The notes below the pieces were generated by a model. The model searched no databases. It had not been told where the DNA came from and saw only the letters and a program-made list of their open reading frames with translations. The position numbers and the translations under genes are program-made. Positions 4,854 through 62,038 of a DNA stretch of 64,000 bases are shown one piece after another; position 1 is the stretch's first letter; each line of letters opens with the position of its first letter. The stretch is from a virus (Duplodnaviria > Heunggongvirae > Uroviricota > Caudoviricetes): the IMG/VR virus record IMGVR_UViG_3300032093_000003. One strand, given 5' to 3'.

Positions 4854-6149
4854 ATGAATCAATTGGGTATAATAGTATCAAAAGAGGATAAAGAATACAT
4901 CGAAGAATGTATACAATCTGGCGAGGTACTAAAGGAGGATTTAAGAAGGTGGTTTAAGGAAAAGTGGGTTGATGTAAGTAGAAAAGTTGATGGTAAACAT
5001 CCACCATGTGGACGTAAAAAAGCAACAGGTAAAGGTTATCCAAAATGTCGACCAAAAAAGAAAGTATCAAAAGAAACACCTAAAACCGCGGGATCATATT
5101 CTAAAAAAGAAAAAAAGGCAATGACTTCTCAAAAAAGAAGAGCAGAAAAAAAAGACCCGAAACCCGGTAAAGGAAATAAACCAACATTTACGAGATATGT
5201 AAATGAGGCCTTCGATGTTGATCCGAATGAATATAAAAAAATACTACAAACTAAAGATTTTTTATTAGTTGTTCCATTTACACATAAAGCATCTTGTAAA
5301 TATGGTGCTAATACTAAATGGTGTACAACTAAAAGACATGACGATGAGGATTTTGAAGATCATGTTTCATCGGGTGTATTAGCGTATTTAATAGTAAGAA
5401 ACCCTGAATATAGAGATAAATTAAATAATTCAAAATTTGCATTATTTAGATATAAAGGAGAAGAGGGTGATGAAGATGGTTTGGTTTACACTGAATTAAA
5501 TAATGAATATCCAATAAAGTGGTTTAAAAACTTAATGGGTAAAAATGGTTTAACAGATGATTATTCTGAAATAATTGAAAAATATAATAATTTTTATAAA
5601 AAATATACAAACATGGCGTTAAATGAAAATATAGTTAAAAAATTAACTAATTTAGTTATGGAAGAATTAAGTAATGAGATAACTTTTGAAGATTTAGAAA
5701 CACTAAAAAAAATAAATAAGTTCGTTAAAAAACAAGAAGTAATTGATTGGTTTAATGAAAACGATATTGAGTATTTTGACATGAATGATATGGAAATGTA
5801 TATAATGTACATCGAAAAAAACATGGAGGATTCTGAAGATTTAGGATCAGTAGAAGAAACTGACTTTATTGCTGATGATTTATTAAATGAGGCAGAATAT
5901 CAAGGACGTAAAGTTCAATTAGGTAAGATCATGCAAGGTGATATTAAGAAATTTAAAGTATACGTTAAAAACGATAAAGGAAAAGTTGTTAAAGTTAATT
6001 TCGGTTTCGGTGGTAAATCTGCCAAGGGAAAAAGAATGGTTATTAAAAAGAATAACCCTGAAAGAAGAAAATCATTTAGAGCAAGACATAATTGTGACAA
6101 TCCAGGTCCTCGTTGGAAACCAAGATATTGGGCTTGTAGAACATGGTAA
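4854..6149 (+). CDS. hypothetical protein, member of 4-copy paralog family (PFTHKASCKYGANTKWCT motif) with lysine-rich basic N- and C-terminal regions
   Basis: Shares the motif block PLT..S..YG.NT.WCT with ORFs at 21896-22756, 54761-56320, 60188-62038. Confidence 0.4.
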   Translation: MNQLGIIVSKEDKEYIEECIQSGEVLKEDLRRWFKEKWVDVSRKVDGKHPPCGRKKATGKGYPKCRPKKKVSKETPKTAGSYSKKEKKAMTSQKRRAEKKDPKPGKGNKPTFTRYVNEAFDVDPNEYKKILQTKDFLLVVPFTHKASCKYGANTKWCTTKRHDDEDFEDHVSSGVLAYLIVRNPEYRDKLNNSKFALFRYKGEEGDEDGLVYTELNNEYPIKWFKNLMGKNGLTDDYSEIIEKYNNFYKKYTNMALNENIVKKLTNLVMEELSNEITFEDLETLKKINKFVKKQEVIDWFNENDIEYFDMNDMEMYIMYIEKNMEDSEDLGSVEETDFIADDLLNEAEYQGRKVQLGKIMQGDIKKFKVYVKNDKGKVVKVNFGFGGKSAKGKRMVIKKNNPERRKSFRARHNCDNPGPRWKPRYWACRTW

Positions 6150-6614
6150 TTAATAAAAGATAATTTTAATATCACATTCATTAAGGAGTTCTAAACTCCT
6201 TTTTTGTTGCTCTTCCCACATCTCTTTATTGTTTGTTGTACAAACCTCTTTACAATAAACTGTTTTTATACCCGAGTTAACAATACCCCTTGCACAATCC
6301 ATACAAGGTAAACCCGACGTAAGATATATTGTTGAATTTTTTAATGAAACACCTATTCTTGCTGCGTTATATATGGCATTACGTTCCGCATGTTCAAACC
6401 AGAAGTATTTTTCGGGTCTTTCCTGACGTTCTTCTTTTGAATCATATAAACCCCTTGGGAATGAATTATAACCTGTAGAAAGGATCTCATTATCCTCACC
6501 AACTATAACTGCACCTATTTGGGTGTATTTGTCTTTTGACTTTAACTTAACCTGTTCTGCGATCCCCAAAAAATAGTCTTTCCAATCCATCACATTAATT
6601 TTTGTGGAGACCAA
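6150..6614 (-). CDS. dCMP / cytidine deaminase family zinc enzyme
   Basis: HAERNAI and PCMDCA zinc-binding motifs (H-A-E ... P-C-x-x-C) characteristic of the CDA/dCMP deaminase fold. Confidence 0.8.
   Translation of the reverse strand: MVSTKINVMDWKDYFLGIAEQVKLKSKDKYTQIGAVIVGEDNEILSTGYNSFPRGLYDSKEERQERPEKYFWFEHAERNAIYNAARIGVSLKNSTIYLTSGLPCMDCARGIVNSGIKTVYCKEVCTTNNKEMWEEQQKRSLELLNECDIKIIFY
6181..6208. terminator. intrinsic terminator hairpin (bidirectional position)
   Basis: AAGGAGTTCTAAACTCCTTTTTTG. Confidence 0.5.
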
Positions 6615-6916
6615 TATTGTAATCTATTATCTGAATACCTATCCAATCTACGAGCCTCTTTTTTCTCGATAAGTTTATTAATTTCTGTCATGTGTTTTTT
6701 ATTTCTAATATCAACACCGACAATGTATCCTCCGTCCGATTTTTCATATGTTGTTTCAAATATGAATTTACCCTCATCATCTTTTTTTAATAGTTCAACA
6801 ATACCATTTTTGGTATCATTTTCTTTCTTATAAATTTTGTAGGGAATCGAACGTAATTCAATTAACTTTTGAAGAACGTCTAATCTTAGTTTTTCGTATT
6901 CATTTTCATCTGTCAT
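6590..6916 (-). CDS. hypothetical protein
   Basis: 108-aa ORF overlapping the deaminase start. Confidence 0.3.
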   Translation of the reverse strand: MTDENEYEKLRLDVLQKLIELRSIPYKIYKKENDTKNGIVELLKKDDEGKFIFETTYEKSDGGYIVGVDIRNKKHMTEINKLIEKKEARRLDRYSDNRLQYWSPQKLM

Positions 6917-60145: not shown

Positions 60146-60187
60146 AATGTTTTTTATTTATAAATATCTTGACTTTTATAAAAAAAA

Positions 60188-62038
60188 TTATTTTATTACT
60201 TTTTTAAATTTAATAAAACTTTCAAATAACTGATAATTTGTCACATATGACGCTAAATTTTCTACCTTAACATTACCTCTGTAAGATTTACCTGTGTCTT
60301 TATTTTGAAAATGTATCTCGACTGATTTTTCAGAACAGTCAACACCAGATAATATTTTTACAATCACATGTTCATTTTCAAAAAAGTCTTTATTTTTGAA
60401 AATTTTACTATATACATCATTAAATTTTTGTCTAACTTCTAAACATTCTTTTGTTACCTCACCATCATCTATTAATTCTTCAAAAAATTTTTCAACATCA
60501 TATTCCATTTTATCCCATCCTGCGGTTTCCCCCACATATTCATAAATGTATTCATATTCCGTTTGAACATTATTATCCGTTATATAATCCTCAATTATAT
60601 TAAGTAAATCGGATCCCCCTTCCCCATCCATTTTTGTTATGTTATTTTTAACCAAATATTGTACAAAATATACAATATTTAATTCGACGTTAGAATTACG
60701 ATAACCATTATCTATTTTTATATACTTTTCAATATCATTTATTAATTTTTGTGCCTCAGCTTCAAAACTTTCTTGATTTAATCTCGTTGATTGATCTAAA
60801 AATTCTTCTTGTATTTTGCTACTTTTATAAAAAATTTCAAAATAATCTTTTTTAAATTGTTCATAATTAAAAGAACCTAAACCTTGTTTTACTTTATCTG
60901 AATTTTCTTCATAATATTTTTTGAATAAAGGTTCAAGTTCAATTGCAACATCATCATCATTATAAAATCTATCTCTTAAATCATCATATATTCTATCATA
61001 ACTACTATTAATGTCCCCATTATACCCCGCAAGTACACTTTCCACATCACCAATTGTACTATAACTTCTGTAAGAATCTACTTCGAAATTAACATATCCA
61101 CCACCAATCTGAATATCAACTAATCGTTCATGTTCTATCTTTTCTTTCAATCCATCTATATTATTATTTAATAAATCATATACAATTGGATTTGATGTTG
61201 CATCTTCAGAAATTGATTTTTTCAATAACTCAAGTGAATCTTCACCACTTAAAACAGTCATTCTTTTTATTTGAGCATCTATTTGTTTTTGATCAGTAAC
61301 ATTTGTAAAAAGTGATGGGAAAAAATATTTTTTAATTTCGGGATTTTCATTTAAAAAATCACCAGTATTAATTTGTTTGTCAGCCGGATTCATGAATTGT
61401 TTAGACTCAAAATGAAACTGATACTTATCATTTTCATTTGTTTTATTAATCATAATAAACAATGGTCCCTGTGTGTTATATCTACTGAAATAATTATCCT
61501 TACCCTTATGTTTATCATTTAAAGAATATGGACCCCATGTTGTACACCATTCAGTATTAACACCTAAATAACACGATGCCCTTTCGGTTAATGGTTGAAC
61601 AATATACCAATTTTCTCCGTTATGTAAAATTTTATATTCTTGTTCAGATAAAGATTTTAATATCGTAGATATATCTCTTTTATCTTGAACAATGTATTTT
61701 TTAACTAAATCATATAAATCACTAAGTTGATTTACTTTATTTATGTCTACTGCTATTTTGTGTTTATATAGATACCCAAGATAATCCTTGGCTCTATCTA
61801 AATCTTCCAATTTCAATGTACCCTTACCATATAATAACAATAATAATTTAGAATACTTTCCAATTCTTTGTACCCTTTTTTCAATACTTGTATCAACTCC
61901 CGGATTTACCGCTGATTGTGGATCTGCTGAAATTACTTTAATAAATGTTGCGGGAGGTATTTTACTATAATATTTTGTATATATCTCACTGGGGGTGGCC
62001 TCAACTAATAATTCCTCAAATAGTAATTTTAATTTCAT
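60188..62038 (-). CDS. hypothetical protein, paralog family member (PLTERASCYLGVNTEWCT motif)
   Basis: Shared motif with 4854-6149 and 21896-22756. Confidence 0.4.
   Translation of the reverse strand: MKLKLLFEELLVEATPSEIYTKYYSKIPPATFIKVISADPQSAVNPGVDTSIEKRVQRIGKYSKLLLLLYGKGTLKLEDLDRAKDYLGYLYKHKIAVDINKVNQLSDLYDLVKKYIVQDKRDISTILKSLSEQEYKILHNGENWYIVQPLTERASCYLGVNTEWCTTWGPYSLNDKHKGKDNYFSRYNTQGPLFIMINKTNENDKYQFHFESKQFMNPADKQINTGDFLNENPEIKKYFFPSLFTNVTDQKQIDAQIKRMTVLSGEDSLELLKKSISEDATSNPIVYDLLNNNIDGLKEKIEHERLVDIQIGGGYVNFEVDSYRSYSTIGDVESVLAGYNGDINSSYDRIYDDLRDRFYNDDDVAIELEPLFKKYYEENSDKVKQGLGSFNYEQFKKDYFEIFYKSSKIQEEFLDQSTRLNQESFEAEAQKLINDIEKYIKIDNGYRNSNVELNIVYFVQYLVKNNITKMDGEGGSDLLNIIEDYITDNNVQTEYEYIYEYVGETAGWDKMEYDVEKFFEELIDDGEVTKECLEVRQKFNDVYSKIFKNKDFFENEHVIVKILSGVDCSEKSVEIHFQNKDTGKSYRGNVKVENLASYVTNYQLFESFIKFKKVIK

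Follow-up and report, generated by a model that had tools for sequence, protein, structure and literature searches.

A four-gene family with a shared Trp-Cys domain in a T4-like phage genome segment and its probable kinship with the PcfJ fold

In polyvalent proteins, which are large and are encoded by phages and conjugative elements, unrelated effector domains are united in a single polypeptide; these proteins are predicted to travel with the DNA and to act early (Iyer et al. 2017, PMC5512222). Domains of the polyvalent type are also found as solo proteins encoded near virion genes (PMC5512222). The prototype of the Pfam family PF14284 is PcfJ of the Enterococcus faecalis plasmid pCF10, for which no functional data were found in the searchable literature. 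Here we describe four open reading frames (ORFs), designated A, B, C and D, in a 64,000-nt stretch of viral DNA (IMG/VR record IMGVR_UViG_3300032093_000003; hereafter the window). They share an α/β domain of ~110 residues with an invariant Trp-Cys pair, named here the W-C domain. Neither this domain nor PcfJ is named in PMC5512222 or in the jumbo-phage survey PMC7824862. The four proteins are best explained as paralogues whose shared domain has a PcfJ-like fold with a site around the invariant Cys and which act as packaged or early-acting effectors; taken as a whole, this reading has a probability of about one half.

Four paralogues and their shared domain

The four ORFs lie exactly where a preliminary description of the window, made from its letters alone, had placed them:

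4854-6149, + strand, paralogue A, 431 aa
21896-22756, - strand, paralogue B, 286 aa
60188-62038, - strand, paralogue C, 616 aa
54761-56320, + strand, paralogue D, 519 aa

The motif P-[LF]-T-[HE]-x-[AS]-S-x-x-[YL]-G-x-N-T-[KE]-W-C-T, on which that description relied, is found literally in A (P141-T158, including W156 and C157), B (P154-T171, including W169 and C170) and C (P149-T166, including W164 and C165). D is more divergent, as had been said: it retains only G...W176-C177-V178 and the ensuing hydrophobic strand, its P-x-T is lost and a longer loop stands ahead of W176-C177-V178. All four window proteins have a Gly five residues before Trp-Cys and a G-x-L ~17-27 residues after it. No fifth copy of the motif occurs in any open frame according to a six-frame motif scan of the window. 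Pairwise BLASTP scores amount to 53 bits for A-B, 41 bits for A-C and for B-C, and 33 bits for C-D.

Resemblance of this kind might be due to chance or to composition in an AT-rich genome, with D especially standing outside the family. BLASTP detects no significant similarity between A and D or between B and D, and D is not captured by PHROGs, as would be expected if this were so. Chance is opposed by a control profile built from 316 domain copies of proteins encoded outside the window, with D-like sequences excluded, which was run against every one of the 534 stop-to-stop frames in the window. The E-values are 1.3e-43 for B, 4.6e-40 for C, 1.4e-21 for A and 6.9e-5 for D, while the best of the 530 other frames reaches 0.42, a gap of more than three orders of magnitude. 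Because these four frames are separated from the remainder, the family has exactly four members in the window, and D belongs to it since a profile free of D-like sequences still recovers it. D is nearest to C, with which it has WC[TV]TW[GR]P in common, and orthologues of the two adjoin in related phages. At these profile scores chance is refuted for A, B and C, and for the set of four it is so improbable that it can be set aside. The four-member paralogous family first proposed from the letters has therefore survived profile analysis, its copies falling into one family and not into unrelated ones.

Judged from their sequences, A, B, C and D are almost certainly true and ancient paralogues. Orthologues of B and C co-occur on viral contigs of 316-334 kb, and a D orthologue (28% identity) lies beside the C orthologue on two contigs of 181 and 334 kb (L092 and L093); the paralogues therefore split before these phages diverged.

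The shared domain was initially put at ~60 residues, which is too small: its α/β part spans ~110 residues, and a related α-helical subdomain of ~130 residues stands ahead of it in B, C and D. A W-C unit usually consists of such a helical subdomain, the W-C domain and, after it, a variable C-terminal region. The W-C domains were delimited as follows:

5205-5603, + strand, W-C domain of A, from the alignment; the external profile covers residues 128-243
22007-22345, - strand, W-C domain of B, from AlphaFold2 (AF2) secondary structure and conserved columns
61169-61633, - strand, W-C domain of C, from the alignment; the external profile covers residues 122-255
55178-55630, + strand, W-C domain of D, from the alignment; the external profile covers residues 185-268

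B is made of the helical subdomain (residues 1-137) and the W-C domain (residues 138-250), without a sizeable variable C-terminal region. In C the helical subdomain and the W-C domain are followed by a C-terminal region of ~320 aa that has no assignment. A has three modules, namely DUF5872 (residues 13-100), the W-C domain (residues ~118-250) and a C-terminal phrog_7595 module (residues 350-431); it matches Pfam DUF5872 at 1e-12 and the PHROGs families phrog_17056, phrog_28193 and phrog_7595. The two extra modules of A are small and basic (4854-5153 and 5901-6149). The DUF5872 module carries W..E.WV...PCGR...YPKCRP and the phrog_7595 module ends in NCDNPGPRWKPRYWACRTW.

Conservation was assessed by aligning 353 copies of the domain, drawn from 285 family proteins that had been retrieved, about one third of them B orthologues. 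Trp and Cys are invariant across 91 diverse members, and P, G, T, G and D are conserved in at least 90%. Of the Trp-Cys-Thr formerly called invariant the Trp-Cys part stands, while the Thr is ~90% conserved and is replaced by Val in D. The conserved polar positions are, in B numbering, T156, S160, T167, C170, T171, Y183, N194, K195, K200 and D219, and further conserved positions are W149, P154, G164, W169 and G187. About ten polar positions (T, S, T, C, N, K, K, D) are conserved at 76-100% in the 353-copy alignment. A metal-binding core, as suggested at the outset, is unlikely because the Cys is the only invariant residue of a metal-ligand type; a second Cys, in an ASC motif, is present in A and C, is a Lys in B and is absent from D.

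The AF2 model of B, computed with 41 homologues, has a mean predicted local distance difference test score (pLDDT) of 79. In this model residues 1-137 form a bundle of helices, which is followed by two strands (140-145 and 149-154), a helix (157-163), the loop G164-S-N-T-K-W-C-T171, another helix (177-186), a meander of three strands (187-194, 200-206 and 211-215) and helices as far as residue 241. The predicted layout of the W-C domain is thus a β-hairpin, a helix, a G-x-x-T-x-W-C-[T/V/I] loop, a helix, a three-strand meander and a helix. The conserved polar residues around the Cys (Thr, Ser, Thr, Cys, Asn/Lys, Lys, Asp) suggest an active or ligand-binding site. That the invariant Cys is a catalytic nucleophile is speculative, and the residue pattern makes it possible more than likely. 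A papain-like Cys-His protease was considered and rejected: the W-C family has no conserved His, though PcfJ has an H-C pair and a His in a strand.

Distribution of the family and the PcfJ-like fold

An exhaustive HMMER search with a profile of the four paralogues against 1.84 billion representatives retrieves 5,920 clusters at E<=1e-3 and 1,174 at E<=1e-10. A word-indexed search for homologues with a profile of the four recovered close relatives only. For B, word-indexed searching gives 257 homologues, all annotated as hypothetical and none with a Pfam domain; the motif is kept in 118 of the 120 B homologues listed. Orthologues of C, 34-41% identical, are encoded on viral contigs of 286-334 kb. 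There are 315 confirmed W-C loci in IMG/VR, many of them on contigs of 100-335 kb. Among 185,579 prokaryotic species genomes, one for each species, two matches were found, both on short contigs of metagenome-assembled genomes (MAGs), in a search whose reach is limited by the degenerate pattern. The family appears to be essentially restricted to viruses, nearly all its members appearing viral. The only cultured carriers are the PA5oct group (~287 kb), Salicola phage SCTP-2 (440 kb, in four places) and Caulobacter phage CcrBL9 (322 kb). Homologues in other phages, which the preliminary description had envisaged, are thus found in large phages, often in several copies per genome. Its assumption of a Bacteroidota host finds only two hints, the GC content of 30.7% and a single short contig that binning assigned to a Bacteroidota MAG.

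A Foldseek search of the BFVD database with the B model yields 18 matches at E<=1e-3, all uncharacterised. These cluster by genome, with three in SCTP-2 and three in Myoviridae sp. ctWb16, and a few are found in metagenomic 'Marseillevirus' bins. The structural relatives from giant-virus bins include A0A481YZT2, A0A481Z016 and A0A481YW50 (Marseillevirus LCMAC201/202) and A0A1V0SIK4 (Klosneuvirus), and one of the giant-virus-bin relatives is annotated as a glutamate-tRNA ligase. They represent either a real occurrence in nucleocytoplasmic large DNA viruses or misbinned phage contigs.

Pfam has no family for the shared domain in the four window proteins, 42 B-family members or 91 diverse members, apart from a sub-threshold match to PcfJ. 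The Pfam LPD families have no match in the window proteins and the 91 diverse members either, and NCBIfam gives none. Over the shared domain, phrog_17056 matches A at 2.4e-4, B at 2.5e-12 and C at 2.7e-8. A sequence search of the PDB with the B-family profile returned noise only (uL22 at 0.5, DsbE at 1.5).

Many of the top relatives are giant proteins of 1,000-3,300 aa with two to five W-C copies spaced by ~450-520 aa, which is approximately the size of the single units C and D. ART-PolyVal is recognised by Pfam in P0156 and P0214. P0203 combines three PcfJ domains, a eukaryote-type topoisomerase I (topoisomerase IB) and two W-C modules, while P0167 has a poly(A)-polymerase head of the nucleotidyltransferase type together with RNA-binding domains. 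The giant relatives also carry WG repeats, LRV/HEAT repeats and DUF4116, and their gene surroundings are phage-like. The initial guess that the family serves host takeover or anti-defence fits these fusions with ART-PolyVal, topoisomerase IB, nucleotidyltransferase and PcfJ in giant proteins.

The W-C domain is probably a strongly diverged branch of the PcfJ-like fold (PF14284). PcfJ is the top recurrent Pfam family among the 91 diverse members scanned, and its profile matches the W-C module of P0194 (residues 386-470) with 22 bits (E 1.5e-4), the cut-off being 25 bits. The AF2 model of the PcfJ protein P0288 (pLDDT 91) has N-terminal helices, a hairpin (87-102), a helix (105-115), H117-C118, a meander (128-156) and a helix (165-178). 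The order of secondary structure elements, by which the two predicted models were compared, is identical in B and P0288. When the P0288 model is searched with Foldseek against BFVD, annotated PcfJ-like proteins come first and are followed by W-C-family entries (A0A248SJT2 at 4e-4, A0A8S5T0B4 at 4e-3, A0A6J5SZD5 at 5e-3, A0A6J5LH30 at 6e-3 and A0A248SJ83 at 1.6e-2). Reciprocally, the B model finds the PcfJ-type entries Q5ULH7 (1.7e-3) and M4M992 (6.5e-3), and the cross-matches have a probability of 0.85-1.0. Both kinds of module stand side by side in P0203, where the PcfJ copies read '...RLVKLTTKEELDEEGKMMGHCVGSYY...GNLEIYSLRD..GPHVTFEI...QQIKGK' and the W-C copies, in the same layout, '...YLVVLPGTEQASKYFGSGTQWCTAAE...NVYLYYILNK...HAYVIAKY...LEIRDIAD'. 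In every hhalign run the Cys falls on the Cys and the meander on the meander. The domains also share their occurrence in large phage proteins; one difference is that the W-C domain has a longer loop leading from the first helix to the Cys. A PDB sequence search with the PcfJ profile gave noise only.

Two other folds were weighed for the domain. The best structural matches of the W-C domain in the PDB are GNAT proteins (acyl-CoA N-acyltransferase fold), and W-C and PcfJ could both be trimmed GNAT-like domains, working as acyl or group transferases on host targets. The P0288 model weakly matches viral GNATs (E 0.03-0.08), the β-α-α-β-β-β-α order is that of the N-terminal arm of the GNAT fold, and the Q-I-K-G-K-[G/A] of PcfJ sits after the third meander strand and before the helix that follows it, like motif A. 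In GNATs motif A, Q/R-x-x-G-x-G/A, binds coenzyme A (CoA). The Z scores of at most 5.4 with 3-15% identity lie, however, in the range of fold analogues, and sequence searches recognise no GNAT family in the shared domain. In place of the glycine-rich loop the W-C domain has [FW]-[ND]-x-x-D, and the B model lacks the C-terminal CoA-binding β5-α4-β6 arm, which leaves the GNAT assignment improbable. A thiol-redox domain of the thioredoxin type, with a monothiol W-C-x-x-[ST] site, would account for a weak match of the B-family profile to DsbE (1z5y_E), in which KWCT, a helix and a strand are laid on TWCPTS, a helix and a strand. The E-value of this match (1.5) is noise, the second Cys and the cis-Pro motif are both absent, and the helix after the Cys is followed in the model by three antiparallel strands, the β-α-β crossover being missing. 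This last possibility is rejected on the topology of the B model and retains next to no probability.

In PcfJ-like proteins an invariant loop, Q-I-K-G-K-[G/A/Q/E]-N, lies between a β-strand and a helix, as seen in P0288 and in the PcfJ alignment. The position and pattern of this loop are those of GNAT motif A, a hint at possible binding of CoA or of a nucleotide by PcfJ itself.

Genomic context and a recurrent octamer

The window is part of a T4-like phage, and A is close to its block of head genes:

7198-8937, gp23-type capsid protein
8966-10252, putative scaffold gene, proposed from its position only
10333-11016, head maturation protease
12526-14367, gp20-type portal
14420-16195, large terminase

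The octamer TATTTATA occurs 32 times in the window against 15 expected, an excess of ~2-fold that none of 100 shuffles attains. Of the 66 genes, 15 have it upstream in sense orientation at a distance of at most 45 nt (11-26 nt in most cases), among them the portal, terminase, protease and putative scaffold genes. Example sites are at 2984, 4375, 10271, 11032, 14371, 16201, 38291, 44868, 45146, 50619, 52475, 60159 and 63185/63189. The octamer is the reverse complement of TATAAATA, the T4 late -10 element. Its placement suggests that it is probably a promoter element of the structural-gene class. The copies that concern the paralogues are:

4375-4382, + strand, TATTTATA, 11 nt before ORF 4386-4841
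63189-63196, - strand, exact copy of TATTTATA at about -51 of ORF 62051-63145, with a 7/8 copy at -11
54736-54755, + strand, two 7/8 variants before D, TATTTATC at -25 and TATTTATG at -13

A starts 12 nt after ORF 4386-4841 and is, from this arrangement, probably co-transcribed with it; likewise C starts 12 nt downstream of ORF 62051-63145. B has no octamer upstream, and a divergent intergenic region is common to B and the gene of a ClpB-like ATPase.

The copies had been described as scattered around the genome. This is only partly so: C and D lie 4 kb apart in a neighbourhood that is kept in relatives. In the related jumbo phages of the two contigs L092 and L093 this neighbourhood comprises, in rearranged form, C, an endolysin, the ORF 62051-like and ORF 58417-like genes and D. 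Identity to relatives on 181-334 kb contigs is 74% for the endolysin, 62% for ORF 58417-59214, 41% for C, 29% for ORF 62051 and 28% for D; C and D therefore evolve faster than their neighbours with 74% and 62%.

Several features of the adjoining genes were recorded. ORF 4386-4841, upstream of A, ends in YPSAYANGWAAKWYKKHGGGW (phrog_27331), and a dCMP deaminase gene (6150-6614, - strand; phrog_174 at 6e-39) converges on the 3' end of A with zero spacer. B is flanked by genes of an Hsp20-type small heat-shock protein (21472-21831, - strand) and of a ClpB/ClpA-like AAA+ chaperone of 671 aa (22847-24862, + strand; phrog_4871 at 2.6e-241), and the intergenic segment 22757-22846 contains an imperfect 24-nt inverted repeat around ACATACGTT/AACGTATGT. 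ORF 58417-59214 (+ strand, 265 aa) matches no family; its middle is rich in Ser/Thr, its C-terminus is zinc-ribbon-like, C-x-x-C...C-x-x-C (CTECGAKRKKDNHKFCPHCG), and it is 60-62% conserved in relatives. Between it and C lies ORF 59285-60145 (- strand), which codes for a Gly/Ala/Val-rich protein of 286 aa with weak matches to tape-measure PHROGs (6.5e-8) that are possibly compositional.

A common leader of the form [IVL]-[TN]-E-[SNK]-Q-L-K-x-[IL]-I opens three ORFs that are otherwise unrelated, 62051-63145, 59285-60145 and 44884-45141, all on the - strand, with the sequences MKIIITENQLKRIILEQ, MARVVKLTESQLKDLINEIILKE and MKVLINEKQLKLILSK. Two of the three flank C, and the common leader may be a targeting or assembly signal. 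Elsewhere in the window, 23 tRNA genes at 29959-37205 (+ strand) cover 19 amino acids, Ala being missing, with two genes each for Leu, Arg, Gly and Met; the tRNA-Ser gene is the sole match to cultured phages at the DNA level.

Possible role and comparison with described systems

In the mechanism that we propose, the helical subdomain, the W-C domain and the variable tail would together form a building block of phage polyvalent proteins. Other phages concatenate two to five of these units and fuse them to ADP-ribosyltransferase, topoisomerase IB, nucleotidyltransferase and PcfJ modules, and in this phage the units are kept as separate genes. A, C and D would be expressed late together with the head genes, travel inside the virion and be put to work at or just after DNA entry. 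B would be regulated differently, and it may work inside the infected cell because of this difference in regulation and of its non-structural neighbourhoods. The assignment of W-C proteins as packaged or early-acting effector modules is tentative. In a stronger version the W-C domain would be a hitherto undescribed catalytic domain, confined to large phages, with the Cys as its nucleophile; with PcfJ it would form a new enzyme superfamily, delivered by the virion, whose members modify targets of the host or of competitors covalently when infection begins. This version is decidedly doubtful.

The main rival is a non-catalytic role in which the W-C domain would be a virion or assembly module, serving as a docking or packaging handle for variable C-terminal cargo or as an internal head or decoration protein, with Trp-Cys a mere part of the hydrophobic core. 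The PA5oct homologue EST35_0205, which adjoins a terminase-like gene, is annotated as a structural protein from tandem mass spectrometry with electrospray ionization (ESI-MS/MS), and such a role would agree with this detection in virions, with the location of A near the head-gene block and with the head-gene octamer shared by A, C and D. It would also agree with the lack of a conserved His partner or second Cys, and with the N-terminus of the C family, strikingly conserved as M-K-x-x-x-L-L-E-E-L-L-x-E in a phage that encodes a head maturation protease. The capsid-targeting leader of the T4 IPIII type ends in an L-x-E protease site. By analogy, the C-family leader could be a capsid-targeting and protease-cleavage signal like those of the T4 internal proteins, which is speculative. 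What speaks against a mere handle is the conservation of about ten polar positions, which exceeds the needs of packing, the location of B and its orthologues in non-structural neighbourhoods, and the presence of several copies per giant protein, which would be redundant for one docking handle. On balance the handle is unlikely, though less so than the GNAT-like transferase, the weaker of the two alternatives.

Several results weigh against the preferred reading of PcfJ-like, packaged or early-acting effectors. Comparisons of W-C and PcfJ profiles by hhalign are not significant (E 0.3-0.9), and searches of hidden Markov models (HMMs) against sequences are weak in both directions, all comparisons lying at E 0.07-0.9; the PcfJ link consequently rests on structure and on one near-threshold Pfam match. 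The structures are predicted models, the Foldseek E-values of 1e-2 to 1e-4 are modest, and the loop that holds the Trp-Cys is the least confident stretch of the domain in the B model (pLDDT 64-68). Among the invariant residues of PcfJ (M-G-H-C-V, S-L-R-D, P-H-x-T-x-E and Q-I-K-G-K-x-N) only the Cys is kept, the W-C family having instead W-C, P-x-T, A-S, G-x-x-T, N-K, K and [FW]-[ND]-x-x-D. The W-C domain is not a member of PF14284 as defined, because the PcfJ residues other than the Cys are replaced and the gathering threshold of 25 bits is reached by none of the four window proteins and by none of 42 B-family members. None of the proteins in the window is itself polyvalent, in the sense that none combines multiple unrelated effector domains, and B orthologues lie among genes of the replication type (RNase T, DNA ligase, nucleotidase). 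The promoter role and the timing attributed to the octamer are read from sequence. The PA5oct proteome of 93 proteins lists seven 'virion-unrelated enzymes', and detection by mass spectrometry therefore does not prove packaging. No biochemical evidence for any W-C member or for PcfJ was found in the literature.

The family comprises ~6,000 clusters, nearly all from large phages; Pfam and NCBIfam lack a model for its domain, no structure of it has been solved, and the searchable literature yielded no description. The link to PcfJ and to polyvalent proteins would place the W-C domain among the poorly known proteins that phages and conjugative elements send in with their DNA. If the W-C proteins do form a virion-delivered enzyme superfamily, the four copies would be four effectors with different targets. 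A catalytic Cys would define a new enzyme class in phage-host conflict; with a non-catalytic Cys, jumbo phages may use the module as a general handle by which cargo is loaded into their capsids. For annotation purposes, a domain family that names thousands of 'hypothetical' proteins is justified, and PA5oct, CcrBL9 and SCTP-2 offer cultured systems for its study.

The T4 internal proteins (IPI-III and Alt) resemble the W-C proteins in being fast-evolving paralogous accessory proteins of T4-like phages, and one W-C homologue was detected in virions; the L-x-E of the C-family leader recalls the T4 capsid-targeting sequence, while sequence and fold kinship between the two groups is absent. With the GNAT fold the W-C domain has in common the element order of the N-terminal arm, and it differs from it by the missing CoA-binding motif, C-terminal arm and sequence signal. 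The families phrog_17056 and phrog_28193 are the same family as A, B and C, already clustered with function unknown; the PHROGs entry, unlike the present analysis, carries no fold, function or link to PcfJ and polyvalent proteins. The W-C family is not categorically new, because it is clustered in PHROGs and is probably a diverged relative of an existing Pfam domain. What appears to be undescribed is its size, the invariant Trp-Cys and its role as a repeating unit in polyvalent proteins of jumbo phages. The window proteins differ from the polyvalent proteins in being single units of 286-616 aa, only A joining three small modules, and the likeness lies in their relatives, which combine several modules with ART-PolyVal, topoisomerase IB, nucleotidyltransferase and PcfJ.

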